This document shows, in pieces, positions 12,007 to 42,224 of a stretch of DNA of 64,000 nucleotides. The translations under genes and the position numbers were made by a program. The stretch is from an uncultured delta proteobacterium (GTDB lineage Bacteria > Desulfobacterota > Binatia > Binatales > Binataceae), in assembly GCA_963842085.1 (NCBI GenBank), contig CAWJET010000002.1, positions 288,001-352,000 on the forward strand. Direction: 5' to 3'. Each line of letters opens with the position of its first letter. Position 1 is the first letter of the stretch. Below the pieces are notes generated by a model. That model did not search any database. It was not told where the DNA came from and saw only the letters and a list, made by a program, of their open reading frames with translations.

Positions 12007-13254
12007 GTGGACGAACTCAAGCGAACTGACCCGGAAATTTATCAGCTCATCAAGGAAGAAGAGCGGTACGAGATCGATTCGGTCCGGCTGATCGCGTCGG
12101 AGAATTACGTTTCCAAGGCCGTGCTGGAGGCGACCGGCTCGATTCTCACCAACAAATATTCCGAAGGCTATCCGGGACGCCGCTACTACGAGGGTCAGCG
12201 CAACATCGATCAGATCGAAGAGCTGGCGGTAGCGCGCGCGCGGGCGCTGTTCAAAGTCGATCACGCAAACGTCCAGCCGTACTCGGGCTCGCCGGCGAAT
12301 CTCGCAGTCTATTTCGGGCTGCTCAAGCCGGGCGACACGATCATGGGCCTGGCGCTGCCGCACGGCGGGCATCTGACGCACGGATGGCCGGTGAGCATCA
12401 CGGGCACTTTCTGGCGTTCCGCGCAGTACGTGGTGGATCGCGAGAGTCACGTCGTGGACTTCGACCAGGTCCGCGCGATGGCGCGCAAGGAGCGGCCGAA
12501 AATCATCGTGACCGGGGGCACGGCGTATCCGCGGCTGTGGGACTTCAAGAGTTTCAGCGAGGTCGCCAAGGAAGTCGGCGCGTTGCTGCTCGCCGACATT
12601 TCGCATGTCGCGGGACTGATCGTTGGCGGCGTGCATCCGGATCCCGCGCCCTACGCCGACGTGATTACGACCACCACCCACAAGACGCTGCGCGGTCCGC
12701 GCGGTGCGATGATCATGTGCCGCAACGAATACGCCGAGGCGATCGACAAGGCAGTTTTTCCCGGCTTGCAGGGCGGTCCGCACAATCATACGACGGCGGC
12801 GATCGCGGTGGCGCTGAAGGAAGCATCGACGCCGGAGTTCAAGACGTACGCAAAAAAAGTAGTGAGCAACGCCAAGACGCTCGCCGACGAATTGCTCGCG
12901 CGCGGATTCAGCCTGGTCTCGGGCGGCACCGACAATCATCTGATCCTGGTCGATTTGACGAACAAGAAAGTGATCGCCAAGAAAGGCGCGAAGGCGCTCG
13001 ACGCGGCCGGCATCGTTTGCAACTACAACACCGTCCCGTACGATCCGCGCAAGCCGTTCAGCCCGAGCGGGCTTCGCCTCGGCACGCCGGCAGTAACCTC
13101 GCGCGGAATGGGTGACGCCGAGATGCGGCAGATCGCGAAGTTCATGGACGAGGCGATCGCGCACGCGGGCGACGAGGCGGCGCTGCGGCGCATCGCAGCC
13201 GCCGTCACCGAGATGTGCCGCAGCTTCCCCGCGCCGGGAATTGCGATCAATTAG
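12007..13254 (+). CDS. glyA: Serine hydroxymethyltransferase
   Basis: LIASENY, NKYSEGYPGRRYY, GGHLTHG, TTTHKTLRGPRG and GLRLGTPAVTSRG; GTG start after GGAGG. Confidence 0.97.
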   Translation: MDELKRTDPEIYQLIKEEERYEIDSVRLIASENYVSKAVLEATGSILTNKYSEGYPGRRYYEGQRNIDQIEELAVARARALFKVDHANVQPYSGSPANLAVYFGLLKPGDTIMGLALPHGGHLTHGWPVSITGTFWRSAQYVVDRESHVVDFDQVRAMARKERPKIIVTGGTAYPRLWDFKSFSEVAKEVGALLLADISHVAGLIVGGVHPDPAPYADVITTTTHKTLRGPRGAMIMCRNEYAEAIDKAVFPGLQGGPHNHTTAAIAVALKEASTPEFKTYAKKVVSNAKTLADELLARGFSLVSGGTDNHLILVDLTNKKVIAKKGAKALDAAGIVCNYNTVPYDPRKPFSPSGLRLGTPAVTSRGMGDAEMRQIAKFMDEAIAHAGDEAALRRIAAAVTEMCRSFPAPGIAIN

Positions 13255-13282
13255 CCGGCAACCTCGAATACGTGTTATCAGT

Positions 13283-13302
13283 GGGTGCAGGGGTCACCCC
13301 TG
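13283..13302. repeat. Repeat family A, partial copy in opposite orientation
   Basis: GGGTGCAGGGGTCACCCC is the reverse complement of the GGTGACCCCTGCACCC core. Confidence 0.6.
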
Positions 13303-13304
13303 TC

Positions 13305-14387
13305 ATGGCAAAAATAAAAGTTGAACGTGGCCTTAATCTTGGGACCCCGTACACGCCTGACATGCAGGATGGCGGGAAACGCCCCGAGCCGACGTGGAGC
13401 ACGATTCGCGACCAGGTGCGCGAGGCCGATGCGCTCGGATACGACACGATTGTCGCGGTGGAAACGCAGCACGACCCGTATCTTGAACTCGCAGTGGCGG
13501 CGCAGGAACCGTCGAAGGTCGAGCTGGCGACCGGGATCGCGCTTGCATTCACCAAGAGTCCGGTCGCGACCGCGTACACCGCCTGGGATTTGCAACGCAT
13601 GAGTGGCGGGCGGCTGGTGCTCGGACTCGGCTCGCAGGTCAAAGGCCACGTGATGCGACGCTTCGGGATGCCGTGGTCGAAGCCCGCGCAGCGGATGAAG
13701 GACTACGTCGGTGCGATGCGCGCGTGCTGGCGCACCTGGCAGACTCGCGAGCCGTTCAACTTTCAGAGCGAGCACTACAATCTCTCGCTGATGACGCCGA
13801 ACTTCGCGCCACCGCCGCAGTCGAATCCGAATATCCCGGTGCTGATCGCCGCGGTGCAGGAGCGGATGCTGCAAGTCGCGGGTGAAGTGTGCGAGGGCGT
13901 GCGACTGCACGGGATCGTCACGCGTAAATATCTCGATCAGATCGCGTTCCCGAATCTGAAGAAGGGCTTCGACAAGTCCGGCAAGCGCGCTGCGGAATGG
14001 AGCAATTTTCAGATTGGCGGCGGCGGCTTTCTATGCGCCGGAAAAGACCGGGACTCGCTCGCGCGTGCGGTCAGCGGAATGAAATCGACGATCGCGTTTT
14101 ACGGCTCGACGCGCTCGTATCGTTCCAGCTTTGAAATAGACGGATGGGGCGACGCGGCCGACCAGTTGCACAAATTATCCGTGCAACAGAAGTGGCCCGA
14201 GATGGCAAAGCTGGTGACCGACGAGATGGTGCACGCGTTCGCGGCGGTCGGAACCTATGACGAGATCGCGGGAGTGATGAAGAAGCGCTTTGCCGGGGTG
14301 AACCGGCTCTCGTTCGACATGCCGGTGAAGAACGATCACGATCGCGGCGTGCTTAAAGAGATCATCCAGGACCTGCGGCGGCAGTAG
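13305..14387 (+). CDS. LLM-class probable F420-dependent oxidoreductase (TIGR03617-like)
   Basis: ETQHDP, TGIALAF.KSP, AWDLQ.MSGGR..LGLGSQVKGH..RRFG, LMTPNF and IAFYGSTRSY. Confidence 0.88.
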   Translation: MAKIKVERGLNLGTPYTPDMQDGGKRPEPTWSTIRDQVREADALGYDTIVAVETQHDPYLELAVAAQEPSKVELATGIALAFTKSPVATAYTAWDLQRMSGGRLVLGLGSQVKGHVMRRFGMPWSKPAQRMKDYVGAMRACWRTWQTREPFNFQSEHYNLSLMTPNFAPPPQSNPNIPVLIAAVQERMLQVAGEVCEGVRLHGIVTRKYLDQIAFPNLKKGFDKSGKRAAEWSNFQIGGGGFLCAGKDRDSLARAVSGMKSTIAFYGSTRSYRSSFEIDGWGDAADQLHKLSVQQKWPEMAKLVTDEMVHAFAAVGTYDEIAGVMKKRFAGVNRLSFDMPVKNDHDRGVLKEIIQDLRRQ

Positions 14388-14393
14388 CCGAGT

Positions 14394-15095
14394 TCATGCG
14401 AGCGGCGGGTTGATGTCGGACCAGAGGCGGCGCATCAACTCGATATGAGTCTCGACGGCCCATAGCGTCTCGGCCGCGGCGCTCTCGGGTATCGCGCGGA
14501 AGATCGAACCGGCGCTCGAGTCGCCGTGATCCTTGTCAACCTTGACGTGAACGCTGAAGAACAGCAGCGCGTCGTCGGAGAGCTGGTAGTGGCGGCGGAG
14601 TCCGTCGATCACGCGGACGTAGGCGTCGGGGTTGAAAAGCTCGGAGCCGAGGCTGATCCCGGCGAGCGTGACGTACCACGGTTTCGACTCGGCCAGCCAG
14701 TACATCCAATGCATCATCGCGGTCGCGTCGGCGGTCATGCGGGCGTTCAGCAATTGTGCGCGCGAGATTCCGATCGCCTCGCCGAATTCGAGGTAGAGTT
14801 CGGGATGCGATCGATTGGCGCCGGAGACGCGGCCGAGTTCCTCTTCGATTAGATTTTCGACGATCGCTTTGCGCGCTGGGAAATCGTCGCATTTCGCATA
14901 GATGAGGCCGAGGATGTTGGCGTTGTGCGCCTTGTTACCGATGAAGAGTTGCGTTGCCCAATGGCGAAGCTGGGGCATCGACAATTCGCCGCGCTCAATC
15001 TTCTCGATGGTCGGGTGCGAGCGCAGCGTGCGATTGTTGCGCTCGAGTTTTTCGATCAAGGTTTTCAGCTGGCGCGTTCCTTTTTCGACATCCAT
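14394..15095 (-). CDS. Heme-oxygenase-like diiron (HDO) enzyme, TenA/PqqC/CADD-like
   Basis: HP N-terminal motif, ENLIEEE...SH, SE and FFSVH-x3-D-x2-H ligand pattern as in CADD/PqqC-like proteins. Confidence 0.8.
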   Translation of the reverse strand: MDVEKGTRQLKTLIEKLERNNRTLRSHPTIEKIERGELSMPQLRHWATQLFIGNKAHNANILGLIYAKCDDFPARKAIVENLIEEELGRVSGANRSHPELYLEFGEAIGISRAQLLNARMTADATAMMHWMYWLAESKPWYVTLAGISLGSELFNPDAYVRVIDGLRRHYQLSDDALLFFSVHVKVDKDHGDSSAGSIFRAIPESAAAETLWAVETHIELMRRLWSDINPPLA

Positions 15096-15097
15096 GA

Positions 15098-16762
15098 TCA
15101 AGTTCCTCGTGGCGCGGCCGGTCCGGAAGCCAACGGGACGCGTTCAGCGGCGAGTTTGCCGGCAATCTCGCGGCGCAGCTCCGCTTTCCTGATCTTGCCG
15201 ACGTTGGTAAGCGGCAGTTCGCGCAGGATTTCGATTCGTTCGGGCCATTTGAATTGCGAGACGCCGCGGGCCGCAAGAAATTCGCGCACCGCGGAGAGCG
15301 CCAGAGTCTCTCCATCACGCAGAGATAAGTAGGCGCACACCTTTTCACCGAGAACGGGATCGGGCATTGCCACTACCGCGGCCACGCTGACCGCAGGATG
15401 CGCGATCAAGTGCGCTTCGATTTCCTCGGCGTTGATCTTCTCGCCGCCGCGATTGATCAGGTCCTTGATTCTTCCCTCGACGACGAGATTTCCGGACGGA
15501 CCGAGCCGCACCAGGTCACCAGTGCGGTAGAATCCGTCGGGAGTAAACGCCTCGCGGTTGCGTTCCGGCGCGCGGAAGTAGCCACGAATCGTGTACGGGC
15601 CGCGGCACCATAATTCGCCGACCGCACCGGTCGCCACCTCTGTTCCGTCAGTATCGACGATCCGGATCTCGTCGGCCGGTGAAAGTGGGCGGCCTTGTGT
15701 CGTGAATGCGACGTCGTCGCGTTCGTCCAGGCGCGTGTAGCACAACAATCCTTCAGACATGCCGAGCACCTGCTGTACGACGAGATGCGGGAAGGCGCTC
15801 TTGAGAGCGCGTGCGGCCGGCTCCTGGAGCCGTTGACCGCCAACCGTGATGACGCGCAGCGAGGCAAAACTGGCGCGTGAAGAGTGCGGGAGATCGAGGA
15901 TTGCGATTGCAACCGCCGGAACGCATGGCAGGTGAGTAATCCGTTCACGCTCGATTATGCTCGCGAGCTCCTCGGCCTTGGTGGATTGACTGAAGAACGT
16001 GCGCCCGCCGGTGAGCAGCGCGCCGAGCAATCCGGGGCATGCCAGGGGAAAGTTGTGCTCGGCGGGAAGCGCAATCAGGATGCGCGATTCGGATGTGAGG
16101 CCCGATGCGGCGGCGGACTCGCGCGCGTTATACAAATAATCCGCGTGAGTGCGCGGTATGAGCTTCGGCATTCCGGTGGTACCGCCGGAAAGCAGGAACA
16201 ATGCAACGTCGAATGGATCGCCGGCCGATGAACCAATGGCGCGCGACGAACCGTCATCCGCACGCAGCCGGACGCATCCATCAGCCGGAGCCGTCGAAAG
16301 AATGGACTTCAGAACCGGTAACCGACTTTTGAGTTCGCGCGCGAGCGCGACGTGATCGAAGCCGCGATACTCGGGTGCGATCGCGATCGCCTTGGCGTCC
16401 GAGAACGACACCAGATACTCGAGTTCGGCTCTGCGAAAGGCCGGCAGCGCCATCACGGGAAGCGCGCCGATTTCAAGACATGCGATAGTCAACGCCGCGA
16501 ATTCGATGCCATTTGGTAGTTGAATAACGACGCGATCGTTGCGCGCGATTCCGCAGCTGGAAAGGAGGGCCGCGAGCCGTCCCGCTTCACCGAGAAGTTG
16601 CGAGTAGGTGAGACTTCCAGTCGCGTCGCCGACTGCGGTTGAGTCGGGGCGCTCGCACGCAGTCCTGGCGATAGCCTGGGGGATGGTTTCGCCGCGCCAG
16701 ACTCCCGCGCGAACGTATCGCTCGGCAAAGTCTGCGGGGAATGGTGTACATCCTTCGAGCAT
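15098..16762 (-). CDS. Aryl-acid adenylating enzyme (DhbE/EntE-like 2,3-dihydroxybenzoate-AMP ligase family)
   Basis: LSGGTTGMPKLIPRTH.DY.YN, HNFPLACPG, QQVLGMSEGL, RGPYTIRGY, DLINRGGEKI and VGKI.K. Confidence 0.88.
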   Translation of the reverse strand: MLEGCTPFPADFAERYVRAGVWRGETIPQAIARTACERPDSTAVGDATGSLTYSQLLGEAGRLAALLSSCGIARNDRVVIQLPNGIEFAALTIACLEIGALPVMALPAFRRAELEYLVSFSDAKAIAIAPEYRGFDHVALARELKSRLPVLKSILSTAPADGCVRLRADDGSSRAIGSSAGDPFDVALFLLSGGTTGMPKLIPRTHADYLYNARESAAASGLTSESRILIALPAEHNFPLACPGLLGALLTGGRTFFSQSTKAEELASIIERERITHLPCVPAVAIAILDLPHSSRASFASLRVITVGGQRLQEPAARALKSAFPHLVVQQVLGMSEGLLCYTRLDERDDVAFTTQGRPLSPADEIRIVDTDGTEVATGAVGELWCRGPYTIRGYFRAPERNREAFTPDGFYRTGDLVRLGPSGNLVVEGRIKDLINRGGEKINAEEIEAHLIAHPAVSVAAVVAMPDPVLGEKVCAYLSLRDGETLALSAVREFLAARGVSQFKWPERIEILRELPLTNVGKIRKAELRREIAGKLAAERVPLASGPAAPRGT

Positions 16763-16789
16763 TGTCGTGGTGCGGCGGCGTCCGTCGGC

Positions 16790-17452
16790 TCAGCGGACCG
16801 TCAGAGTCCCCGCAATCATGCGGAAACATTCGTCCATTATGCGGCCGCGCTGCTCGTAATCGCGCGCCGGCTCGTACCAGGTATAAAACCAGTTCATCGC
16901 ACCGAACAGCAGCGAAGTGAGGATTCGCGCCTGCTCGCGGTCCAGGGTCTTGTTGCGATGCGCGGCGTAGCCTTCGAGCAATCGGCGGCAGATACGGGAG
17001 TACTCGCGCTTGAGCCGCGTGATGTCGGCGGCGTAGCGGCCGGTCAGCGAGTCAGCCTCGCGCACCAGTACCTTCATCTCGGCGAGATTGCCCATGTGGT
17101 ATTCGAGATGACTTCGGATGAAGAGCCGCAGGCGCTCTTCGGGATCGTCGGTCTCCGACATTCGCGATTCCGCGAGCGAGACCAGCTGTTCGAACGCGCG
17201 CCGCGAGATGAGGTAGAGCAGCTCTTCCTTGTTGCGGAGGTAGTAGTAGATGCGTGGAAAGGAAATTCGTGCGCGCGCGGCGATGTCGCGAATGGACGCG
17301 AGGCCGAAACTCTTCTCGGCAAAGACGGCGGCAGCGGAGCGTAAAATGTGATCGATGTTTGCATCGTAGCGCTCGTCGGGCGCCATCGCGCGCGCGGCCG
17401 GCTTGATTCGCGCGACCCGCCGAGGCGCTCCATCGAGATTCGACTTCTTCAA
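16790..17452 (-). CDS. TetR/AcrR family transcriptional regulator (KstR2-like C-terminus)
   Basis: HTH SIRDIAARA..S...IYYY..NKEELL; C-terminal GAMNWFYTWY; TTG start after GAGGTG. Confidence 0.9.
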   Translation of the reverse strand: MKKSNLDGAPRRVARIKPAARAMAPDERYDANIDHILRSAAAVFAEKSFGLASIRDIAARARISFPRIYYYLRNKEELLYLISRRAFEQLVSLAESRMSETDDPEERLRLFIRSHLEYHMGNLAEMKVLVREADSLTGRYAADITRLKREYSRICRRLLEGYAAHRNKTLDREQARILTSLLFGAMNWFYTWYEPARDYEQRGRIMDECFRMIAGTLTVR

Positions 17453-17461
17453 TTCATCACC

Positions 17462-18202
17462 TCAACTGAAACGGCGGCCAGCCGCCGGATCGGGAATGGG
17501 AATCTCGAGCTTGGTCAGCAGATTGTTGACCTCGGCGGTGAATTCATCGCGCATCTGCCCGTTGCTGCGGCGTCGCAGGCCCCATCGAACATAATCGAAC
17601 TGCCGCCTGGATCCCGATTTTCCGAACATATCGAGCCCCGCGGGGTACCACTTTGCCAGATGCTTGATCAACAGGTCGCGTCCGCGATCACCCTCACGCT
17701 GCAGGTACCTCCGGATCAGCCGATAGCCGAAGGCCGCATGGCCGAGCTCCTCTTTATGCACGCGCTCTGCGATTCGCGCGAGCGGCTCGTAGCTGCACCC
17801 GACCCACTCGTATCCCATATAGGCCCCTTGCCGGTCGGCGAAGAAACTGAAGAGGCCATATTCGAGCCAGTCCACGGCTTCGTCGCGCATTTCGAAAATG
17901 TAGATCGGCATTGGCGACGCCATGAACTTGCTGTCAACCTGGACGCCGAGATCGTCGAGCAGCTTCATCCAATAGCTCGCGTGGCGAACTTCGTCGGACC
18001 AGAACGCCGCGTACTCGGCCTTGTCCTCAGCGGTAGGCGCCAGCGCGAGCGGCTTCAGGAGCGTGCGTTCAGGAGCGAGCATGTATTCGGACTCGATGCG
18101 CGATTGGATCGACAGCATCCGGATTAGAAGATCCCGGTACTCGGCGGGAAGGCCGTCAGGTCCCGGGAAGTGGAGCTCGCTCGCGGGTGATGTGTTGCTC
18201 AT
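17462..18202 (-). CDS. PaaA/PaaC/BoxB-family ferritin-like diiron protein (acyl-CoA oxygenase/epoxidase subunit-like)
   Basis: APT..DK....DEVRH, W....F..DRQG, CSYEPLARI...EELGH, W.P..LDMFG, WGLRRRSN..MR. Confidence 0.85.
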   Translation of the reverse strand: MSNTSPASELHFPGPDGLPAEYRDLLIRMLSIQSRIESEYMLAPERTLLKPLALAPTAEDKAEYAAFWSDEVRHASYWMKLLDDLGVQVDSKFMASPMPIYIFEMRDEAVDWLEYGLFSFFADRQGAYMGYEWVGCSYEPLARIAERVHKEELGHAAFGYRLIRRYLQREGDRGRDLLIKHLAKWYPAGLDMFGKSGSRRQFDYVRWGLRRRSNGQMRDEFTAEVNNLLTKLEIPIPDPAAGRRFS

Positions 18203-18268
18203 TCGATTGTTCCGGTCCTGTCCTGGTGTTCTGAACGATAGTTCAGATACCATCGCGACCACCGGCGG

Positions 18269-19027
18269 TCAACCCGCCATGGTCAGGCCGCCGCTCACGC
18301 TGAGCACCTGGCCGGTGACAAAGTCGGAATCGGAACTCGCGAAGAATGCGACGGCGCCCGCCACGTCGGCCGGTTGCCCGAGGCGGCGAAAAGGGATGCC
18401 ACGCGCCATCGCTTCGAGAACTTTCTCGCGTCCCGCCATCGCGCTCTTGAGCAGCGCGGTGTCGGTTGGTCCGGGGCACACGACGTTGACGTTGATGTGG
18501 TTTGCCGCCAGCTCGCGCGCCAGCGTTTTCGAGAAACCGATGATAGCGGCTTTGCATCCCGCGTAGACCGCTTCGCCGCTCGAGCCAACGCGCGCGGCAT
18601 CGGAAGAGATCGAGATGATTTTGCCGGTACCGCGCGATTGCATCCGGGGCGCAATGGCTTTGCAGCAGTTGAGCATGCCGCGATAGTTGATCGCGATTAC
18701 TTTGTCCCAGAAGTCGGGAGTGCTCTCGACAAATGGCATAACGATGTCCCATCCGGCATTGTTCACCAGGATGTCGATTGGCCCGAGTTCGCGCTCGACG
18801 CGATCAGCCGCCGCGATTGCATCGTCAATTCTGGTGACGTCAAGCGCGACCGCGATCGCGGATTTACCGTGGCCGCGAATTTCCGCCGCTGCGCGCTCGG
18901 CGGAATCGTGCTGGATATCTGCCATCGCCACCTTGGCGCCCTCGTCGGCCAGGCGCGACGCGATCGCGCACCCGATTCCCTGGGCGGCGCCGGTCACGAT
19001 TGCGACTTTTCCGGTCAGGCGGGACAT
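18269..19027 (-). CDS. SDR oxidoreductase (2-hydroxycyclohexanecarboxyl-CoA dehydrogenase BadH-like)
   Basis: TGAAQGIG, NNAGWD, SSDAARVGSSGEAVYAGCK, CPGPTDT, SVSGGLTM. Confidence 0.88.
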   Translation of the reverse strand: MSRLTGKVAIVTGAAQGIGCAIASRLADEGAKVAMADIQHDSAERAAAEIRGHGKSAIAVALDVTRIDDAIAAADRVERELGPIDILVNNAGWDIVMPFVESTPDFWDKVIAINYRGMLNCCKAIAPRMQSRGTGKIISISSDAARVGSSGEAVYAGCKAAIIGFSKTLARELAANHINVNVVCPGPTDTALLKSAMAGREKVLEAMARGIPFRRLGQPADVAGAVAFFASSDSDFVTGQVLSVSGGLTMAG

Positions 19028-19036
19028 GGCGATCCT

Positions 19037-19792
19037 TCAACTCGCGATCCAACCGCCGTCGATAATGAATGGCGCTCCGGTTGCGAAGGGCGCCTCGTCG
19101 CTGGCGAGGAACAGCGCGGTGTGCGCGATTTCGTCGGCGCTGCCGACGCGGCCCAGCACCGAGCTGCGCTGGATGAACTTCGGCTGCAATCCCTCGGGCC
19201 CGGTGATTCGATCCACCATCGGGGTGTGGATTACTCCCGGGCAGATGCAGTTGACGCGAACGTTATAGCGCCCGTACTCGAGCGCCGCGACCCGTGTCAG
19301 CGAAATCACGCCGGCTTTGGCCGCGCAGTATGCGCTCGCGCCCTTGAGCCCGACGATTCCCGCGACTGACGCGGTGTTGATCACGGCGCCGCCGCTGCGT
19401 TCGACGATCCTGGGCAGTCCGTATTTCATTCCGAGCCATACGCCGCGCAGGTTGATTGCTATCACGCGGTCGAATGCCTCTTCGCTGAGCTGCGCGAGGA
19501 AGCCCGACTCGCCTTCGATTCCCGCGTTGTTGTAGAGCACGTCGAGCCCGCCGAACGCGCGGACTGTCTCCTCGACCATCGCGCGCGCATCCTCCGAGTC
19601 GGACACGTCGGCGCGCAACGAGATCGCTTCGCCGCCGGCCGCTTTGATCATCCGCGCGGTCTCGGCCGCGGACGTCTCCGTTACGTCGATCGCCGCGACT
19701 TTTGCGCCTTCGCGTGCGAACAACACGGAGGCCGCTCGTCCCATTCCAGAGCCAGCGCCGGTGATCAGCGCAACTTTTCCCTGAAGTCTCAT
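19037..19792 (-). CDS. SDR family oxidoreductase
   Basis: TGAGSGMG, NNAG, YCAAK, RVNCICPG, IDGG. Confidence 0.92.
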   Translation of the reverse strand: MRLQGKVALITGAGSGMGRAASVLFAREGAKVAAIDVTETSAAETARMIKAAGGEAISLRADVSDSEDARAMVEETVRAFGGLDVLYNNAGIEGESGFLAQLSEEAFDRVIAINLRGVWLGMKYGLPRIVERSGGAVINTASVAGIVGLKGASAYCAAKAGVISLTRVAALEYGRYNVRVNCICPGVIHTPMVDRITGPEGLQPKFIQRSSVLGRVGSADEIAHTALFLASDEAPFATGAPFIIDGGWIAS

Positions 19793-20799: not shown

Positions 20800-23700
20800 T
20801 TAACGAAAATCGTGCGAGGGCGGGACCGTGCCGGGAATCTTAATCTCCTCGAAGCGCCGCGCGCGAATCGCGGTCACGCCGTCGACCCTTTGCAGTACGC
20901 CCTCGGCCAGCAGGATTCCGGCGCTGCGCAGCAGCAGGCGATGTTTCTGAAACAAGTCGGGCGTGACGATCAGGTTGGCGATTCCGGTTTCGTCCTCTAG
21001 CGTGATGAACAGAAAGCCCTTGGCCGTGCCGGGGCGTTGGCGCACGATTACGACGCCGGCGGTCTTCACCCACGACTGATGATTGGCGCGCGTGAGCGCG
21101 TCGGCGCTCAGGATTCCGCGCGCGGTCAAATCTCCGCGCAGATAGGTCATCAGATGAGGCCCCGTCGTGAGGCCGGTCGCCGCGTAATCTGCGAGCGTCT
21201 CATCGATCGGCGCCATCGTTGCCAGCGGAACTTCACCATCGCGCGGCCTCACACCCGCCAGCAGACTCTTTGGATCACGCTCGACGGCGGCCGCATTCCA
21301 CATCGCGTCGCGCCGCGCCAGGCCGAAGGATGCGAACGCGCCTGCGTAGGCAAGCGCATCGAGCTCGCGCCGGTTCGGTCCGACGCGCGCGGTGAGATCG
21401 GCAATCGAATCGAACTGTCGCCGCGCGCGCTCGCTTTCGATTTGAAGTCCGACTTCCTCGCGCAGGCCGGTGACGTATCGCAGTCCCATGCGCGTCGCGG
21501 GATGGCCATCAATAACTTCGATGATGCATTTCCAGCTCGAGCGGGTCACGTCGATTGGCAGCACGACGACAGCGTGACGCGCGGCATCTTTCACCAGCGT
21601 CGAGGGATGGTAGAAGCCGAGCGGGTAGCAATTCAGCATCGCGGCCAGGAACGCCGCCGGATGATGGTACTTCAGGTACGCCGACGCGTACGCGATCAGC
21701 GCGAAGCTCGCGGCGTGCGATTCGGGGAATCCATACAGCGCAAACGACGTGATCGAGCGCACGATGTCGTCGGCGACGTTGCCTTGCAGGCCGTTGCGCA
21801 ACATCCCGGCGCGCAGCCGCGCTTCGATTTTCTCCATCCGCTCGGCAGAGCGCTTGAATCCCATCGCGCGGCGCAGTTCCTCGGCCTCGCCGCCGCTGAA
21901 TCCCGCCACCGTCATCGCCATTCGCAACAACTGCTCCTGGAAAAGCGGGACGCCGAGCGTGCGCTTCAGGATCGGCTCGAGCGAAGGATGCGGATACTCG
22001 ACGGGCGCGCGACCGTTGCGGCGATCGAGATAGGGATGCACCATTTTGCCGACGATGGGGCCGGGGCGGATGATCGCGACCTCGACCACCAAATCGTAAA
22101 ATCGCTCCGGCTTCATCCGCGGCAGCGTCGCCATCTGCGCGCGGCTCTCGACCTGGAAAACGCCGACGGTATCGGCGCGCCGCAGCATCGCATACACGCC
22201 GGGATCGTCGGGCGGAATATGCGCGAGATCGATTTCGACGCCCTCGTGCGCTCGGATCATCGGAATCGCCTCTTTCAGCGCGGCCAGCATCCCGAGTCCG
22301 AGCAGATCGATCTTGATTATGCCAAGATCGGCGCAGTCGTCCTTGTCCCATTGAATCACCACGCGGCCGGGCATCGAGGCCGGCTCGAGCGGCACGATTT
22401 CGTCGAGCGGCTGCGCGGCGATCACCATGCCGCCGCTATGCTGCCCGAGATGGCGCGGCACGCTCTGAATCTTGCGCACCAGCTCGACCAGCATCCTGAT
22501 TCGCGGCGCTTCCGCATCGACGCCGCCGCGCTTGAGCAGCGACACGAGATCGTCATGATGGTCGCGGAACTCGTACACCTGGTTGAGCTTGGCCAGCCGG
22601 TCAACCTGTTCGGGCGAAAAGCCGAGGGTCTTGCCGACTTCGCGCACCGCGCTTTTGGTGCGATAGGTGATCACGTTCGCGGTCATCGCGGCCCCACGTT
22701 CGCCGTAGCGGCGATAAACGTATTGAATCGCCATCTCGCGATCGTCGCCGCTGGGCAGATCAAGATCGATGTCGGGCCATTCGCCGCGCTCTTCGGAAAG
22801 AAAGCGCTCGAACAGGAGTTCCATCTTGACCGCGTCCACCGCCGTGATCCCGAGCGCATAGCACACCGCGCTGTTGGCCGCGGAGCCGCGTCCCTGCACC
22901 ATGATCCGATTTTCGCGGCAGAACTGGACAATGTCCCATACGATCAGGAAGTAGCCGGCGAGCTTGAGCCGCTCGATGACCGCGAGCTCATGTTCGAGCT
23001 GGCGGTGCGTGCGAGCGTCGATCGCGCCGCGCCATCGCTCTCTCGCGCCGGCATAGGTGAGAACCCGCAAATAGCTGTCGGGCGTTTCTCCCGGTGGGAG
23101 CGGATAGTCGGGAAAGCGATAGCCCATGTCGCAGAGCTGGAAAGCGCATCGCTCGGCTATCGCGCGCGAGGTGGCGACGGCGCCGGGCAGCTCGCGAAAC
23201 AGCGCGGCCATCTCAGCCGGCGATTTCAGATGGCGCTGGCTGTTGATCCAGAGCGCGCGGCCGGCTTCCTCGAGCGTGGTCTTGAGCCGGATGCAGGTCA
23301 GCACGTCGAGCAATTTGCGATCCGAGCCGCCGTGGCATACGTCGTTGGTCGCGACCACCGGGATTCGCGCCGCGCCCGCAAGCGCTGCGAACTTGCGGTT
23401 AAGGCGCTCCTCGCCGGCGTCGAGATGCCGCTGCAAATCGATGTAGAAATTTCCCGCGCCGAAAATCCTCTCGAGCCGCCGGCTCAGCTCGACGGGATCC
23501 TCGCCGCGAACGAGCATGCGTGACAGCGGGCTCATCGCGCCGCCGGCAAGGCAGATGAGTCCGCGGCCGTAGCGTTCGAGTTCGTCCAGCGTAATGTGGC
23601 TCTCGCCTTTCGCGGGATAAACCGGCGGAGCAACAGAGCCGTCGCGTGCGAGCGCGCCGGGATTCAGGACGCGCATCTTCGCGTCGGTGATCATGCGGCA

Positions 23701-23970
23701 GAGATTCTGGTAGCGCTGGCGATCGGGCACGAGGACGTAGAGCCGCGAGTCGTCGTCCAGCGTCAGTTCCGCGCCCACGATTTGCCGGATTCCCGCGGCC
23801 TTCGCGGCCTGATAAAAGCGCGGTGCGCCGTAAAGTCCGTCGCGATCGCCAAGCGCCATCGCGCCATAGCCAAGTTCGGCCGCGCGCGCCGCGAGATCCT
23901 CGGGCGTACTCGCACCTTCAAGAAAGCTGAACGCGCTGCGCGCGCGCAGCTCGATGTAATCGGAGTTCAT
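20800..23970 (-). CDS. dnaE2: Error-prone DNA polymerase III alpha (ImuC/DnaE2)
   Basis: SAFSFLEGAS PHP start, GRGSAANS, PDIDLD, HSGG, FQVESRAQ, YGFPESHA, RQRPGTAKG and C-terminal SHDFR. Confidence 0.96.
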   Translation of the reverse strand: MNSDYIELRARSAFSFLEGASTPEDLAARAAELGYGAMALGDRDGLYGAPRFYQAAKAAGIRQIVGAELTLDDDSRLYVLVPDRQRYQNLCRMITDAKMRVLNPGALARDGSVAPPVYPAKGESHITLDELERYGRGLICLAGGAMSPLSRMLVRGEDPVELSRRLERIFGAGNFYIDLQRHLDAGEERLNRKFAALAGAARIPVVATNDVCHGGSDRKLLDVLTCIRLKTTLEEAGRALWINSQRHLKSPAEMAALFRELPGAVATSRAIAERCAFQLCDMGYRFPDYPLPPGETPDSYLRVLTYAGARERWRGAIDARTHRQLEHELAVIERLKLAGYFLIVWDIVQFCRENRIMVQGRGSAANSAVCYALGITAVDAVKMELLFERFLSEERGEWPDIDLDLPSGDDREMAIQYVYRRYGERGAAMTANVITYRTKSAVREVGKTLGFSPEQVDRLAKLNQVYEFRDHHDDLVSLLKRGGVDAEAPRIRMLVELVRKIQSVPRHLGQHSGGMVIAAQPLDEIVPLEPASMPGRVVIQWDKDDCADLGIIKIDLLGLGMLAALKEAIPMIRAHEGVEIDLAHIPPDDPGVYAMLRRADTVGVFQVESRAQMATLPRMKPERFYDLVVEVAIIRPGPIVGKMVHPYLDRRNGRAPVEYPHPSLEPILKRTLGVPLFQEQLLRMAMTVAGFSGGEAEELRRAMGFKRSAERMEKIEARLRAGMLRNGLQGNVADDIVRSITSFALYGFPESHAASFALIAYASAYLKYHHPAAFLAAMLNCYPLGFYHPSTLVKDAARHAVVVLPIDVTRSSWKCIIEVIDGHPATRMGLRYVTGLREEVGLQIESERARRQFDSIADLTARVGPNRRELDALAYAGAFASFGLARRDAMWNAAAVERDPKSLLAGVRPRDGEVPLATMAPIDETLADYAATGLTTGPHLMTYLRGDLTARGILSADALTRANHQSWVKTAGVVIVRQRPGTAKGFLFITLEDETGIANLIVTPDLFQKHRLLLRSAGILLAEGVLQRVDGVTAIRARRFEEIKIPGTVPPSHDFR

Positions 23971-24013
23971 GCTGATGCGTTCGAGGCAACGCCCTTATCG
24001 ATCAGCCTGGGTA

Positions 24014-24310
24014 TTATTTGCCTGAGTGGTGAGCGCGTCCTTGGCCTGAGCGAGGTGCTTTTCGCGGCCGGAGTGATGCTTCGAGGGTCTGCCGGATGTA
24101 GCGCTGGTACGGGATACCGCGGCGATGCGCGACGGCACGGACCGCGTTCAGGAGTTCTTCAGAGATTCGAAGATTGACCGACTTTTGTTTGGGCCTGAAC
24201 TCGAACTGAAATGGCGCGAAGTTTTCGGCGCTGATGTAGTCGGACAAATCCTGGTCAAGGAAGTTTTCCGCTTCCCTATCGGTTTTGAACACGGGCAATT
24301 TCTTGTTCAT
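24014..24310 (-). CDS. CopG/BrnA-type ribbon-helix-helix antitoxin
   Basis: LPVFKTD.EAE.FL..DLSDY, K..VNLRI..LL..V...A...GIPYQRYIR; overlaps the toxin gene by 35 nt. Confidence 0.85.
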   Translation of the reverse strand: MNKKLPVFKTDREAENFLDQDLSDYISAENFAPFQFEFRPKQKSVNLRISEELLNAVRAVAHRRGIPYQRYIRQTLEASLRPRKAPRSGQGRAHHSGK

Positions 24311-24596
24311 ATTTTTTAATCTCCTTCCTATGCATGTAGCGTGCGCTTATGGGCCGTATGAAGATTCCGCCGCGTGTTTGCCTCGGCGTGAAAACGACAA
24401 AGGCGTATCGCCCTTCTTCCGTCCGCCCGATCGCCAAAAAACGCGGCTCCGCGCGCGAATTCTTGAGGTCGGGCACAATCAGGGTCGCCGCGTGAACGAG
24501 AACGTGCTCCACTTCAGCGACCGAAACGCCATGTTTCTGACACTTCGAGCGGTTGGCGTTGTCCCATGCAAATCCTGAAAAAGTGACCTTCTGCAT
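24276..24596 (-). CDS. BrnT-family ribonuclease toxin
   Basis: FAWD..N..K..KHGV...E, E.RF.AIG, VVFT.R, IRPISAR. Confidence 0.88.
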   Translation of the reverse strand: MQKVTFSGFAWDNANRSKCQKHGVSVAEVEHVLVHAATLIVPDLKNSRAEPRFLAIGRTEEGRYAFVVFTPRQTRGGIFIRPISARYMHRKEIKKYEQEIARVQNR

Positions 24597-24607
24597 CCGT
24601 TGGTCTC

Positions 24608-24637
24608 AGTGTAGGCTAATGCCTATACAAATGCCAA
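24608..24637 (-). promoter_or_regulatory. Candidate TA promoter (TTGGCA-N18-TACACT) overlapping an inverted repeat operator
   Basis: TAGGC-taat-GCCTA palindrome at 24612-24625 overlapping the -10 element and spacer. Confidence 0.45.
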
Positions 24638-24653
24638 TGCACCTTGGCGACAA

Positions 24654-26378
24654 TCAGTCGTAGGCGCCGTCGAGAAACCACTTGTGCGAGTGCAGGTCGC
24701 GGAAGACGCGGTATACGCCGCCGTCTTCGAGCGCGAGTTCGTAGTAATCGCGGATGAAGCCGCATTTATCCGCGCCATTTATTTCAATTCTCGCAGCGCT
24801 TCCGTTTGCGCCATTGAGATGCGGGGCGGGCGAGGGCGCCGGCATGAGCGCGGACAGTGCCTTCAGATTTTCTGCGGATACCTGGCGCGGATGTGCTCCG
24901 AACATGCGCCCGTCATGTAGCTCCAGCCCCCGCTGCGGTGCGGAATTTTGTTTATCGGATGAATCCGCGTGCGCATCCGCGTCAGCGGTGCATCCAAGCC
25001 ACCATTCGCCGTCGCGCCGCCACGGCCCGGCGATGGAGATGACGCGCGCGCCAAGATTATCGCCGCGGACGAACTCCGGAATCTCCCGCGAGCACATCAC
25101 CTCGATCTCGCGCGCCGGACGAATCGCGCGTATCACGAGCTGCGTCACATTCTTCGCCGCCGCATTTTCGGGGAGTGGCGGCGCGGCGGGCGGTGCGAAT
25201 GGATCGAGCCGCGTCGCTTCGGGCCGATGCGAATTTTCCGCCCTCAGCATGCCGACGTTGCCGGGGCCGCATAGCGCCGCCAGCCGTGCAATCGTGGTCT
25301 GCAGCTTGTCAGGCGCCGGACAGGGAGGCAGGAACATGTCGGTCTGCGCTGGTCGTGGGACGCGCGGTGCGATCTCGATTCGAATCGATTCGACGGCGGC
25401 CTCGGGCGGCTCCGCTTCAAGACTCAGGTTGATGAGCGTGAGAATCGCGCGGACGTCGTTGGACGGCGCCGCCACCGCGACCCGCCGATTGAAACTGCGA
25501 TGACCGCTCATCCCGAATGCGAGCGTGATATCGCCGGCGACCATGCCGCGTAGCGAAAGCCGCTCGGCCAGCCGCTCGAGCATCGCGCGCATGACGAATC
25601 CCAGCGCCTCCAGGAGCTCGATGCCGTATTCAAGCTCGACGGTCTCGACAAACAACTCGGTGCGGCGGCGCGGTACGAGCGGCGCATGGCTTCCACCGCG
25701 CGCAAGGCGGACCAGCTCGACGCCGCGCCGTCCCAGCCGCGTGCCGACCGCGTCGGGATTGAGGCGCGCCAGCTCGCCCAGGCGCCGCATCCCCCACCGC
25801 GCGAGCGTGGTCTCCAGGTCGTCGCCGCGATCCGATTTCCCGAGGCTAAGCATGTCGAGCGGCAGCCAGTTCAGGAATTCGCGCTCGCGACCGGTTTCGA
25901 TCACGCGCACGCCGCCGCATCGCGCGGCCAGATGTGCCAGTTCCTTGTTGGCCGCGACGCCGGCGGCGGGCTCCATCCCGACTCGGCGCACGCATCGCAC
26001 CAGCTCGGCGGTGATCTCTTCTTCGCCATTGTAGATGCGATGCAGGCCGGCGAGATCTACCCACACGCATCCCGGCGCGCCCGACTCGACGACCGGCGAA
26101 ACCGATTCGACCGCATCGAGCAGGGCGGAATGCGCCGAGCTTTCCGCGGCGGGCGAGCGATGGACCACGACCAGGTCCGACGAGATCGCCCGCGCCTGCG
26201 CGATCGTCATGCCGGGGCGGATTCCAAGTTCACGCGCGCGCGGCGAAATGGCGTCGAGCTCGGCATGCGGCGCGAGGCTGCGGCCGATAGCCAGCACCTT
26301 GTCCGCGAGCGCGGGATTCGAGCGCACGAGCGCCGCAATAGAAAAGTCGGCGACCATGATGCACGCGATACGAGCCAT
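24654..26378 (-). CDS. imuB: ImuB, Y-family DNA polymerase-like protein
   Basis: A..LGI.PGMT..QA, SP.VE, QTDMF clamp-binding-like motif, C-terminal GPWR..GEWW...RDYY...G.YD; position between imuA and dnaE2. Confidence 0.9.
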   Translation of the reverse strand: MARIACIMVADFSIAALVRSNPALADKVLAIGRSLAPHAELDAISPRARELGIRPGMTIAQARAISSDLVVVHRSPAAESSAHSALLDAVESVSPVVESGAPGCVWVDLAGLHRIYNGEEEITAELVRCVRRVGMEPAAGVAANKELAHLAARCGGVRVIETGREREFLNWLPLDMLSLGKSDRGDDLETTLARWGMRRLGELARLNPDAVGTRLGRRGVELVRLARGGSHAPLVPRRRTELFVETVELEYGIELLEALGFVMRAMLERLAERLSLRGMVAGDITLAFGMSGHRSFNRRVAVAAPSNDVRAILTLINLSLEAEPPEAAVESIRIEIAPRVPRPAQTDMFLPPCPAPDKLQTTIARLAALCGPGNVGMLRAENSHRPEATRLDPFAPPAAPPLPENAAAKNVTQLVIRAIRPAREIEVMCSREIPEFVRGDNLGARVISIAGPWRRDGEWWLGCTADADAHADSSDKQNSAPQRGLELHDGRMFGAHPRQVSAENLKALSALMPAPSPAPHLNGANGSAARIEINGADKCGFIRDYYELALEDGGVYRVFRDLHSHKWFLDGAYD

Positions 26379-26390
26379 CGGGACACCGTG

Positions 26391-27317
26391 CTAGCTGCTT
26401 GCGGAAACTCGAACCTGCGGAGTTCCTTTTGTCATTCTGAGCGCAGCGAAGAATCCCGGATCGCGGTGCTCGTCTATGCACTCCTGCCGGGGGTTTTCGC
26501 TGCGCAGGGAATTTGGAGCTTGAATTGGATCGACGAGCGCGCGAACGCGAACGCGCCGCCCCGTCCCGCCCATCTTGTTGCGCGCGACCATCGCGTCCAC
26601 CGCCAGTCCGTCGAACATCACCGGTGAGCCGGGAGCGAGCCGGCTGAACGACGTCTCAGCGCGGCTGGCGGACAGGCTCAGCGCGGCGAACGTCCCGCAC
26701 ATCCGCCACGGCGCGATCGCGATCACGGCGGCGCCGCTGCGTTCGGCCGCGCGCGCGATTCGCAGCGCCAACGCCTGAGCGAGTGCGCGGGGCGCCTCGC
26801 CGAAATCGACGACGACCAGGCCAAAGCCGCCGGCCTCGAGCACGAGTTCCGCGGCTTTGACGATTGCGGATTGACGGCGCGCGAGCGGGCCAACTGCGAC
26901 GCGGGCGTGCGGGAGAGTCACACGCGTAATCCGCGACGCTGTCGTCGTCTTCATCGACGCCCACAGCATCCGGCGAAGCTCGACTCCGGCAGCCGCCATG
27001 CTCTCGGGGTCGAAGGCGCTCGAGGCGTCGAGCCATGCGGCGACCTCGCCGCGACGGGTAGCGAATGCGGCGAACGATGCGGCAATCGAGGTCTTGCCCG
27101 AACCGGCGCGGCCCGTAATTTCGCTGATTCGCCCGCGCGGAATCCCGCCGTCAATCAGGGCGTCGAGCTGTGCGAGTCCGGAGCTTAGGCGGCGGTCCTT
27201 GCGAGTGAGTTCATAGCCACGAAAAACCCCTGAAAATTCAAGCAGTTGTGGCCGTCTGACGACCTGAATCAGGTTTGAAGAGTCGCTCCATGAGGAAGGT
27301 TTTGGAAGAGCAGCCAC
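26391..27317 (-). CDS. imuA: ImuA/RecA-like protein
   Basis: SSGL..LD...GG.PRGRISEITG..GSGKT Walker A, AELVLEAGGFGLVVVD; start uncertain (GTG 27317 or TTG 27353). Confidence 0.85.
   Translation of the reverse strand: MAALPKPSSWSDSSNLIQVVRRPQLLEFSGVFRGYELTRKDRRLSSGLAQLDALIDGGIPRGRISEITGRAGSGKTSIAASFAAFATRRGEVAAWLDASSAFDPESMAAAGVELRRMLWASMKTTTASRITRVTLPHARVAVGPLARRQSAIVKAAELVLEAGGFGLVVVDFGEAPRALAQALALRIARAAERSGAAVIAIAPWRMCGTFAALSLSASRAETSFSRLAPGSPVMFDGLAVDAMVARNKMGGTGRRVRVRALVDPIQAPNSLRSENPRQECIDEHRDPGFFAALRMTKGTPQVRVSASS
26431..26512. repeat. REP-like family B doublet inside the imuA 3' end
   Basis: GTCATTCTGAGCGCAGCGAAGAATCCCGG plus degenerate inverted copy CCGGGGGTTTTCGCTGCGCAGGGAAT. Confidence 0.75.
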
Positions 27318-27327
27318 AAGATACGTT

Positions 27328-27343
27328 TTCGCTCTTTCTTCGC
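27328..27343. promoter_or_regulatory. Candidate SOS operator, direct repeat TTCGC-N6-TTCGC
   Basis: 11-bp-period direct repeat immediately upstream of imuA, same geometry as GTTC-N7-GTTC LexA boxes. Confidence 0.4.
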
Positions 27344-27476
27344 CATAAGTCAACGGGGATTATCCGGTGTTTGACACCGGCCTTCTCAAAATCCCCAAGT
27401 CAACTACTCGACAATCACCATAGCGTACGCATAGCAAGCCAAATCCCGCGGGGTCAGGCTGAATAGTTCCAAACCC

Positions 27477-30675: not shown

Positions 30676-31428
30676 TTAGCGGAATAAATCGGCTTCGGCA
30701 GGACGAATCAATATCTTCGCGCTGCCTTCGAACGGTTCGTATTTGTATCCGCGCACGACGACTGCCGGAGTGGCGCCCGCCTTTTCCATCAGGAGACCGG
30801 CGGCAGAAGCGAGCTCGTCGGCGATGGCGACGACGGTGTGATGCAATTCGCGGCCACCCAAGTCGTTGGTGCCGCGCAAGTCGAGGATCGGATTCATGCC
30901 GGCGATGCCGAGGCAGACTTCAGTAAGGCCGTCGCGCCACGGACGGCCGAAGGTGTCGGTGACCAGCACCGCGACCGTAACGCCCAGGCGGCGGCGAATC
31001 TCGTCGCGGAGACGGCGTGCGGACGCGTCGGGATCTTCGGGCAACAGTATTGCGCGCTCGTCTTCGAGGCTGTTGGATTCGTCGACGCCGGCATTGGCGC
31101 AGACCCATCCGGGTCCGGTCTCAACGATCAGCACGCCGCGATCGTTGCGGACGATTCTGCTGGTCTGGCGCAGCACGATTTCAATCGCGCGCGGATCCTT
31201 CTCCCATCGCTTGGCGTAGGCCTTGGCGAATTCGGAGGGCTCGAAATCCTTCAAATCCACGACGCGACCCTCGGCCTTCGAGACTACCTTCTGGCAAACG
31301 ACAAGAATATCGCCGGCTTCGAGCCTGAAGCCGGTGTGGTCGAGTCCCCTTGCGATCAGCGCGGCGAGATCGTCGCCCGCCCTCACCATCGGGATGCCCT
31401 CGATCGCTGTGAGACTTATCGTGCGCAT
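30676..31428 (-). CDS. cofE: Coenzyme F420-0:L-glutamate ligase
   Basis: GIP.V..GDDL, QKVVSKAEGR, ANAGVDESN, DTFGRPWR.G, ADELASAA, DLFR; no nitroreductase domain. Confidence 0.94.
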   Translation of the reverse strand: MRTISLTAIEGIPMVRAGDDLAALIARGLDHTGFRLEAGDILVVCQKVVSKAEGRVVDLKDFEPSEFAKAYAKRWEKDPRAIEIVLRQTSRIVRNDRGVLIVETGPGWVCANAGVDESNSLEDERAILLPEDPDASARRLRDEIRRRLGVTVAVLVTDTFGRPWRDGLTEVCLGIAGMNPILDLRGTNDLGGRELHHTVVAIADELASAAGLLMEKAGATPAVVVRGYKYEPFEGSAKILIRPAEADLFR

Positions 31429-31444
31429 CGGCGGCAACAGCCTA

Positions 31445-34786: not shown

Positions 34787-34832
34787 CAATCGCGTTTATA
34801 AGCCATCAGGTACGAGGAGGCAACCTAGTTGC

Positions 34833-34999: not shown

Positions 35000-35096
35000 T
35001 CTTCAACCTTACGCTTGCGCAGGTTGATGCGCGAATTCCGGTGGCGATTTCGCGGACGCGATATCACAATCATTTCGACTCGCAGGAGGACACGAG

Positions 35097-36023: not shown

Positions 36024-36107
36024 CTGTCGCATCGGAGACAAAAGCGTTTTGCCCCGCCCATCCGCAGGAGTTAGTGTGAGTTGTATAGGCAAAGCCGGAG
36101 TACCCAG

Positions 36108-38141: not shown

Positions 38142-38142
38142 A

Positions 38143-39528: not shown

Positions 39529-39555
39529 GCCGCTCCGCTCCAACATCGTCAGCTA

Positions 39556-40340: not shown

Positions 40341-40343
40341 CGA

Positions 40344-42168: not shown

Positions 42169-42224
42169 TTCAGTGATTCACTGCGCCGGGCTGTCCGGTT
42201 TGATTCTCACTCGCGGTCAAAAAG

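Follow-up and report, generated by a model that had tools for sequence, protein, structure and literature searches.

The locus described here lies in a 64-kb window (the whole stretch of 64,000 nucleotides that was analysed) from an uncultured Binataceae bacterium. The window is part of the second contig (1.69 Mb) of a 4.93-Mb genome that is 100% complete, and the nearest public relatives of this genome are metagenome-assembled genomes (MAGs) of Candidatus Binatus and the Binataceae. Open reading frame (ORF) calls combined with Pfam and NCBIfam assignment placed six closely spaced minus-strand ORFs at 14394-19792, as the first-pass annotation of the window had described. None of the six encoded proteins reached the curated equivalog cut-off of any characterised enzyme in NCBIfam. 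The robust element of the row is a pair, a DhbE-like ligase and a 246-aa PaaA-like oxygenase; the row as a whole does not form a fixed unit. The gene content, the metal ligands, the folds, the candidate operator and the patterns of linkage and co-occurrence are reported below as they were observed. The features are as follows.

19037..19792, minus strand: short-chain dehydrogenase/reductase (SDR), 251 aa, first gene of the row (profile searches)
18269..19027, minus strand: BadH/FabG-like SDR, 252 aa (TIGR03206; FabG-type neighbours in the PDB)
18230..18247, strand not applicable: candidate TetR operator, palindrome TCTGAAC-N4-GTTCAGA (conserved core)
17462..18202, minus strand: stand-alone PaaA-family ferritin-like diiron protein, 246 aa (PF05138, ligands, fold)
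16790..17452, minus strand: TetR-family repressor (PF00440, TetR_N, and PF17932, TetR_C_24)
15098..16762, minus strand: DhbE/EntE-family aryl-acid adenylating enzyme, 554 aa (TIGR02275, pocket signature HNFPLACPG)
14394..15095, minus strand: heme-oxygenase-like dimetal enzyme (HDO), CADD/PqqC-like, 233 aa (PF14518, 3His/3carboxylate)
13215..14387, plus strand: F420-dependent luciferase-like monooxygenase-type (LLM) oxidoreductase, convergent neighbour (TIGR03617)

The ORF of the PaaA-like protein spans 17462-18262, and its start is probably the ATG at 18202, since the homologues have 246 aa. With 73.4 bits on PF05138 (gathering threshold 28.5), the protein is a member of the PaaA_PaaC superfamily. 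It scored 80.6 bits on the PaaA model TIGR02156 and 24.9 bits on the BoxB model TIGR03225, below the respective cut-offs of 280 and 499.1. The six diiron ligands of PaaA are Glu42, Glu72, His75, Asp126, Glu155 and His158 (PMC4498308), and the alignment showed equivalents of all six in the PaaA-like protein. The AlphaFold model (pLDDT 93.3) had PaaA as its best fold in Foldseek, with a TM-score of 0.80-0.81, followed by SSO1313 (4mud), BoxB and PaaC; cADO ranked below PaaA. The two ExxH motifs are 81 residues apart, as compared with 83 in PaaA and 102 in BioE. A profile search over 1.84 billion representatives collected 102 clusters of the family at E-values up to 1e-30 and 546 at 1e-10. One metagenomic gene call of 377 aa (P0106) fuses an AMP-binding C-terminal domain to the PaaA-like domain. 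The survey of fusions in the family gave as partner domains only this AMP-binding C-terminal fragment (one case) and PaaX on a true PaaA (one case), and a search of the ESM Atlas returned only families that had already been found. A GC-rich hairpin with a T-rich tail was also noted by a consensus scan at 17472-17487 (minus strand), at the extreme end of the coding sequence and just before the TetR start.

The ligase scored 537.8 bits on the DhbE/EntE model TIGR02275, below the equivalog cut-off of 723.55. The model scores were 538 bits for the 2,3-dihydroxybenzoate (DHB)-AMP ligase model, as opposed to 281 for cyclohexanecarboxylate-CoA ligase and 300 for medium-chain ligase. The best solved relative is the salicylate-AMP ligase 5wm2 (514 bits). 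In the pocket signature HNFPLACPG, a Cys occupies the position of DhbE Ser240, as in 5wm2; the DHB enzyme 6e8o has Ser-Ser. We take this position to distinguish salicylate-type from DHB-type enzymes. The Cys pocket would narrow the range of candidate substrates, and it is not proof of ligation to coenzyme A (CoA). The ligase gene has a GC content at third codon positions (GC3) of 0.68, under the 0.73-0.80 of its neighbours.

A search of the GTDB species set with the PaaA-like protein as the probe found relatives encoded in 222 stretches, the best 80 of which were kept. Clade 1 comprises the 56 loci with a PaaA-like copy at 74% or higher identity to the window protein. Where at least 3.9 kb of downstream sequence was available (46 clade-1 loci), the ligase was found in 45, the TetR gene in 45 and the HDO gene in 46. 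The gene arrangement is therefore not due to chance. On the other side, the BadH-like SDR was present in 45 and the second SDR in 44 of the 47 clade-1 loci with at least 1.8 kb of upstream sequence. Identity to the window proteins across clade 1 was 76-93% for the PaaA-like protein, 77-97% for the HDO and 60-82% for the ligase; within the row, the HDO is thus the best and the ligase the least conserved protein. The residue at the DhbE Ser240 position was Cys in 41, Ala in three and Ser in two of the 46 clade-1 ligases that carry the motif; the searched pattern was not matched in the remaining clade-1 loci.

The ligase and PaaA-like genes were adjacent in 45 of 46 clade-1 loci, in all seven clade-2 loci and in one of four Chloroflexota loci. 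Clade 2 belongs to one Binataceae genus (g10); the PaaA-like proteins are 63-68% and the ligases 44-47% identical to those of the window, the ligase gene lies immediately upstream in 7/7 loci, and a TetR gene and an FNR-type reductase gene after the pair occur in two of the seven each. No HDO or SDR gene was found near the pair in these seven loci, and a small conserved reverse ORF there gave no family match. In the Chloroflexota order, the close PaaA-like subfamily is present in 2/39 genomes and any relative in 18/39. The first-pass annotation had asked whether the gene combination is conserved. The recurrence of the ligase/PaaA-like pair without a carrier protein or PaaBCE bears this out for the pair, but not for all six genes.

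Presence and absence were further counted in 165 Binataceae species genomes from 30 genera, which take in genomes flagged as unpublished (G017, G018, G101, G157, G162, G163 and G164). HDO orthologs, counted by hand at a best E-value of up to 1e-60, occur in 79 of these genomes (14/30 genera), and the PaaA-like gene occurs in 69 (nine genera). Every one of the 69 genomes with the PaaA-like gene also has the HDO ortholog, including those of g10, in which the two are unlinked. The chance of nine genera falling within 14 of 30 would be about 1.4e-4 if genera were independent, which they are not. Both genes are missing from several genomes of the same genus that are more than 95% complete (3.4-3.7 Mb). 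The module is therefore accessory.

The HDO ORF covers 14394-15101, and on comparison with homologues its start is probably the ATG at 15095, 2 nt from the ligase stop. The protein belongs to its superfamily by score (98 bits on PF14518 against 28.9), by its seven-helix fold and by all six ligands. It retains the E/H/E/HxxxDxxH set of CADD, i.e. the 3His/3carboxylate set that defines HDOs (PMC13108848, a 2026 HDO review). The first-pass annotation was thus right that both diiron proteins keep their ligands, with the six PaaA positions and the full CADD set aligned. The AlphaFold model (pLDDT 88.8) was closest to CtCADD (TM 0.80-0.88), then to PqqC, BesC, FlcD and UndA. Scores on the CADD/PabS model TIGR04305 (89.4 bits) and the PqqC model TIGR02111 (33.5 bits) are below the cut-offs of 200 and 240. 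CADD is described as sacrificing the side chains of Tyr27 and Lys152 to make p-aminobenzoate (PABA) (PMC13108848). In HMMER alignments to 1rcw and 9pj4, these residues are replaced by Ile and Val in the window HDO. Synthesis of PABA by this HDO, which came into question because TrpE is the genome's sole chorismate-binding enzyme, was rejected, because neither residue is kept and the gene is accessory. The window genome has two CADD-like HDOs, neither of which keeps Tyr27 of CADD, and no PabB.

The HDO is semi-autonomous. Two g10 genomes show the gene order SDR, BadH-like SDR, TetR, ZIP transporter, HDO, and in one of them (G069) more than 1.5 Mb of the same contig separates the HDO from the ligase/PaaA-like pair. 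Lone orthologs with about 74-81% identity are located between mutS and purF-purL-purQ in genus g17, before rplS in g24 and beside an MFS transporter gene in g27; the PaaA-like gene is absent from these genomes. Ten genomes in all have the HDO without a PaaA-like gene, three of them incomplete (65-82% complete) and seven from five genera, among which g30 is represented by G162 alone. The ZIP gene between TetR and HDO in g10 was seen in L104 (G069:C1, 10128-10850) and L108 (G064:C4); it hints at metal supply for the HDO. A ZIP homologue with 75% identity is encoded elsewhere in the window genome (C1:1875319-1876038). Another Binataceae genome carries a row of aromatic-oxidation genes (L098, G139:C8:371001-389000) for a soluble diiron monooxygenase beta subunit, HpaB and a LigB-type extradiol dioxygenase, together with two HDO paralogues, one of which is 33% identical to the window HDO, and four LLM genes, one of F420 type.

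The TetR protein falls in the FadR-like subgroup, as judged from TetR_N, TetR_C_24 and the palindrome, and its solved relatives include the acyl-CoA-binding FadR 3whb. This FadR/acyl-CoA-type assignment and the conserved candidate operator agree with the earlier proposal of an acyl-CoA-responsive type of regulator. The palindrome (18230-18247) follows the stop codon of the BadH-like SDR and lies 28 nt ahead of the ATG of the PaaA-like gene. Its core, GAAC-N4-GTTC, is in place in 51/52 clade-1 loci, and the surrounding spacer varies. The perfect CTGAAC-N4-GTTCAG occurs once in the 4.93-Mb genome; matches with one mismatch number eight, compared with 6-13 in shuffled genomes. The operator pattern gave no further members of the TetR regulon genome-wide, and a sigma-70 promoter scan found no promoter. 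A possible clade-2 operator, the half-site TGAAT-N4-GTTCAG upstream of the ligase, was present in only 3/7 loci, too weak to claim. The candidate operator defines a putative TetR-controlled sub-operon of the PaaA-like, TetR, ligase and HDO genes, and both SDR genes are upstream of it.

The closest solved relatives of the SDR at 19037-19792, the second SDR of the counts above, are cyclohexanol dehydrogenase 4ure, BbsD 7pcs and levodione reductase. The BadH-like SDR scored 311.5 bits on TIGR03206, below the cut-off of 431.2 for BadH, and its neighbours in the PDB are FabG-type and hydroxyacyl-CoA dehydrogenases. Four genomes (G001, G002, G025 and G052) carry this SDR at the syntenic site, with 76-90% identity, and are missing the cassette. 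These sites read FprA, serine hydroxymethyltransferase (SHMT), BadH-like SDR and DnaE2, with Spy before DnaE2 in two of the four; the PaaA-like, TetR, ligase, HDO, second SDR and LLM genes are all absent from them. Since it is kept there, the BadH-like SDR is a resident gene. A single pathway of six genes, as originally proposed, is thus not upheld: this SDR stays where the cassette is missing, and the HDO is also found apart from the pair.

The partners that such enzymes usually have are missing not only from the operon, as had been noted earlier, but also from the genome as far as PaaB, isochorismate synthase (ICS) and salicylate synthase are concerned. A profile search of the complete genome did not find PaaB (PF06243). 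The genome has two PF05138 genes, and the other copy, on another contig, is 25% identical and keeps its own ExxH motifs. TrpE, encoded within a trp operon, is the sole chorismate-binding enzyme, and no isochorismate, salicylate or aminodeoxychorismate synthase was found in the genome. The coordinates for the observations of the single TrpE and the two HDOs are C2:214410-215915 and C1:1158222-1158911. Isochorismatase is not among the operon genes, and no dedicated search for it was made. Nine PP-binding matches occur in the genome and none within the window; the nearest free-standing carrier gene is at C2:409,209, about 3.4 kb from a generic AMP-ligase gene (C2:412,730-414,205). The only cluster of nonribosomal peptide synthetase (NRPS) and polyketide synthase (PKS) genes has its own starter of the fatty-acyl-AMP-ligase type, i.e. 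an AMP-binding gene ahead of ACP-KS. This hybrid lipopeptide-type cluster (L082, C1:2136916-2155700) encodes the AMP-binding starter, ACP-KS, AT-DH-KR-ACP, C, C-A-T-C-A and TE, and is interrupted by an IS1595-family transposase after a truncated condensation domain.

In its logic, the operon corresponds to the 'hybrid' pathways Paa and Box, which are aerobic and CoA-dependent. We tentatively favour, as possible rather than probable, a route, inducible and CoA-dependent, for the aerobic oxidation of an ortho-substituted, salicylate-like benzoate; it would form a third lineage beside Paa and Box. It is the substrate, the CoA acceptor, every reaction and the catabolic direction that we infer here. 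When no substrate is available, TetR would sit on the palindrome upstream of the PaaA-like gene and keep the sub-operon silent, until released by the aryl acid or the corresponding CoA ester. The DhbE-family ligase would then adenylate the acid and, with no carrier at hand, transfer the acyl group to CoA. CoA is proposed as the acceptor because a carrier is missing and the partners are of CoA type. The PaaA-like protein, using O2 and supplied with electrons by a reductase whose gene is not in the operon, might epoxidise or hydroxylate the ring of the aryl-CoA, as do PaaABCE and BoxAB. The HDO could catalyse another O2-dependent reaction, with the free acid or a product as its substrate; in other genomes it may also work by itself. 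The SDRs may oxidise ring hydroxyls, the BadH-like SDR as a resident gene with a wider role. A further claim seems doubtful to us, namely that the ligase and the 246-aa protein represent a third class of aerobic systems for oxygenating the ring of aryl-CoA, not recognised so far, which would be self-sufficient, needing neither PaaB/C/E nor BoxA, and would take salicyl-CoA-like substrates.

Several facts weigh against the proposed route. The pocket of the ligase is not fixed, with Ala or Ser in 5/46 clade-1 enzymes; clade 2 has Ala or Ser and the Chloroflexota enzyme Ser at the DhbE Ser240 position. The PaaA-like protein has Phe at the position of PaaA Lys68, although Glu49 is retained; in PaaA, Lys68 forms the 'lysine bridge' with Glu49, Glu72 and Asp126 (PMC4498308). 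PaaA-like relatives at 32-39% identity have unrelated neighbours (NorB-like, hemerythrin, OsmC). The seven genomes of five genera that have the HDO ortholog without any PaaA-like gene carry it in housekeeping contexts. The HDO fits poorly with what is described for its superfamily, since the terms 'CoA', 'benzoate' and 'aromatic' do not occur in the accessible text of the 2026 review (PMC13108848), according to which about a dozen of more than 10,000 HDOs are validated, most of them with free fatty acids or amino acids as substrates. The operon lacks genes for a hydrolase, a crotonase, a thioesterase, an aldehyde dehydrogenase and ring cleavage, as well as for a transporter and a dedicated reductase. 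A complete catabolic route is therefore not encoded there. In addition, all counts were made in related MAGs, and hence the observations are not independent.

Other explanations were weighed against the inducible CoA-dependent route. The row could be a mosaic of unrelated functions, in which the HDO has an autonomous job (a small metabolite made or destroyed, possibly metal-linked) and shares a promoter with the pair in some genera. The lone orthologs in g17, g24 and g27, the separation from the pair in two g10 genomes, the higher conservation of the HDO than of the ligase (77-97% vs 60-82%) and the solitary action of CtCADD and NePabS, the nearest relatives known for it, are all consistent with a mosaic. 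We consider it unlikely nevertheless: the HDO is present in 69/69 genomes with the PaaA-like gene and in 46/46 loci, only 2 nt separate it from the ligase, and the sacrificial Tyr27 and Lys152 of CADD are absent from it. The HDO was kept in the proposed pathway, with reserve, because of the nested genus pattern and the 2-nt junction. It would also be conceivable that the enzymes make a small aryl metabolite (for instance a modified benzoate, a signal or a metal chelator) without a carrier, i.e. biosynthesis rather than catabolism. DhbE-type enzymes typically belong to pathways for siderophores and natural products, the known HDOs are mostly biosynthetic (PMC13108848), a ZIP metal transporter gene adjoins the HDO in g10, and downstream catabolic genes are not in the operon. 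Against this, the genome has TrpE only and no source of salicylate or DHB, an amide- or ester-forming enzyme, an exporter and a carrier are all missing, and a FadR-like TetR within the operon would be typical of catabolic operons; biosynthesis is distinctly unlikely in our view.

The substrate might not be aromatic at all. An alicyclic or fatty acyl thioester could be oxidised or cleaved, as by BioE or in the cyclohexanecarboxylate pathway, and there is a precedent in BioE for cleavage of acyl-CoA by a stand-alone diiron enzyme (PMC12704756). The SDRs resemble BadH, cyclohexanol dehydrogenase and hydroxyacyl-CoA dehydrogenases, and the HDOs UndA and BesC cleave aliphatic chains. This explanation has little chance of being correct, as the ligase keeps the aryl-acid pocket motif and scores 538 bits on the DHB-AMP model against 281 and 300 on the alicyclic and medium-chain models, the ExxH spacing of 81 follows PaaA (83) and not BioE (102), and the BadH-like SDR is not specific to the cassette. 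Barely plausible is a scheme in which the ligase delivers its product to an aryl carrier protein or NRPS whose gene lies elsewhere, with only the tailoring of a starter unit left to the operon. The nine PP-binding matches, some of them free-standing, and the NRPS-PKS cluster would provide for it. The cluster, however, has its own acyl-AMP ligase, no Cy/ArCP start and the IS1595 interruption, and the window has no PP-binding gene, the nearest free-standing one having the generic AMP-ligase about 3.4 kb away.

The gene combination was not found described in open-access papers and preprints, which agrees with the earlier view of an undescribed pathway. The known aerobic 'hybrid' attack on rings as CoA thioesters takes two forms, Paa and Box. 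If the preferred route is true, this picture would be extended by a third form, in which a siderophore-type ligase is combined with a minimal stand-alone oxygenase, and a function would be given to a PaaA-like family of about 100 clusters at 50% identity. The HDO would then be tied to aromatic-acid metabolism, a new reaction context. Binataceae are abundant uncultured bacteria of soil and peat, and a module for aromatic acids that can be induced would matter for the part they play in carbon turnover. With its small gene set and conserved candidate operator, the system is directly testable in vitro.

The convergent LLM gene had been suggested to participate as well. Its product scored 365 bits on TIGR03617 (cut-off 278), and its stop is 6 nt from that of the HDO. 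LLM orthologs, however, occur in 108/165 genomes (19 genera), compared with 79/165 for the HDO. The two differ by genus, LLM vs HDO being 15/17 vs 1/17 in g24, 9/13 vs 0/13 in g15 and 3/3 vs 0/3 in g14. The LLM gene is unlinked from the HDO in g10 and stands beside SHMT at cassette-less sites. By this distribution, the LLM enzyme is not counted as a member of the operon; it belongs to the resident SHMT block. Pfam matches at 30676-34789 (minus strand) indicate four contiguous F420 biosynthesis genes, for a cofE-like F420 ligase, cofD, a CofH-like radical SAM protein and a second radical SAM protein, so that the cofactor required by the adjacent LLM enzyme is probably made by the organism itself. 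Three of ten Chloroflexota loci (L113, L116 and L118) have a PaaA-like gene (36-38% identity) tail to tail with an LLM gene, reminiscent of the LLM gene next to the operon of the window; these genomes are possibly closely related, and they encode LLM enzymes in great numbers.

A cassette of imuA-like (RecA-fold), imuB (Y-family) and dnaE2 error-prone polymerase genes adjoins the operon at 20800-27353 (minus strand), and this flank is kept in related genomes. Long ORFs with high GC3 and no Pfam match (E up to 1e-6), of 1054, 352, 524 and 557 aa, are located at 35070-38234, 38488-39546 and 52428-55954, and one of them adjoins a Mla-type ATP-binding cassette transporter set (39675-43376).

Compared with known systems, the ligase is closest to salicylate- and DHB-AMP ligases (5wm2, PchD 7tyb, DhbE 1md9 and EntE), with end-to-end alignments that score 475-514 bits. 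It retains the core motifs intact, and its pocket signature HNFPLACPG is similar to HNFALACPG in 5wm2. The difference lies in the partners: an aryl carrier protein, ICS or NRPS does not accompany the ligase here. The HDO has its closest solved sequences and folds in the self-sacrificial PABA synthases CtCADD and NePabS (E 2e-11 to 1e-9), and the 3His/3carboxylate ligand set is identical. It differs from them in the sacrificial Tyr27/Lys152 pair and in its CADD score below the cut-off.

For the PaaA-like protein, SSO1313 of Sulfolobus solfataricus (PDB 4mud) belongs to the same size class, shares the fold (TM 0.74 and 0.82) and is likewise PaaA-like and stand-alone; it is only 19% identical to the window protein, and the title of its PDB entry names no function. 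BioE, a homodimeric ferritin-like diiron oxygenase that stands alone, takes part in biotin synthesis with acyl-CoA/ACP as its substrate; it has the ligands E26, E53, H56, E125, E155 and H158 and a cADO-like fold (PMC12704756). Going by its published description alone, it resembles the window system in being a stand-alone diiron oxygenase of about 25 kDa for CoA/ACP thioesters with a ligand-responsive repressor, and it differs in the cADO-like fold, the ligand spacing, a Glu where the window protein has Asp, fatty acyl substrates and a MocR-type regulator. A BioE-like biotin/pimelate route was set aside because of the ligand spacing and the aryl-type ligase.

The Box system (BoxAB with benzoate-CoA ligase) likewise combines a ligase with a diiron ring oxygenase that does without a structural subunit, BoxB being monomeric (PMC4498308). 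BoxB has about 470 aa, however, against 246 here, and BoxA, BoxC and BoxD are not nearby. The Paa system (PaaABC(D)E with PaaK) differs in the length of PaaA (about 309 aa vs 246), in Lys68 where the window protein has Phe, in a PaaK-type rather than a DhbE-type ligase and in PaaX rather than TetR as the regulator; PaaB, PaaC, PaaD, PaaE, PaaG, PaaZ and beta-oxidation genes are not beside the ligase and oxygenase here. What the two systems have in common is an acid-activating ligase together with a ferritin-like diiron oxygenase of one Pfam family, in which the six iron ligands and Glu49 are kept and the fold agrees with that of PaaA at a TM-score of 0.80-0.81.

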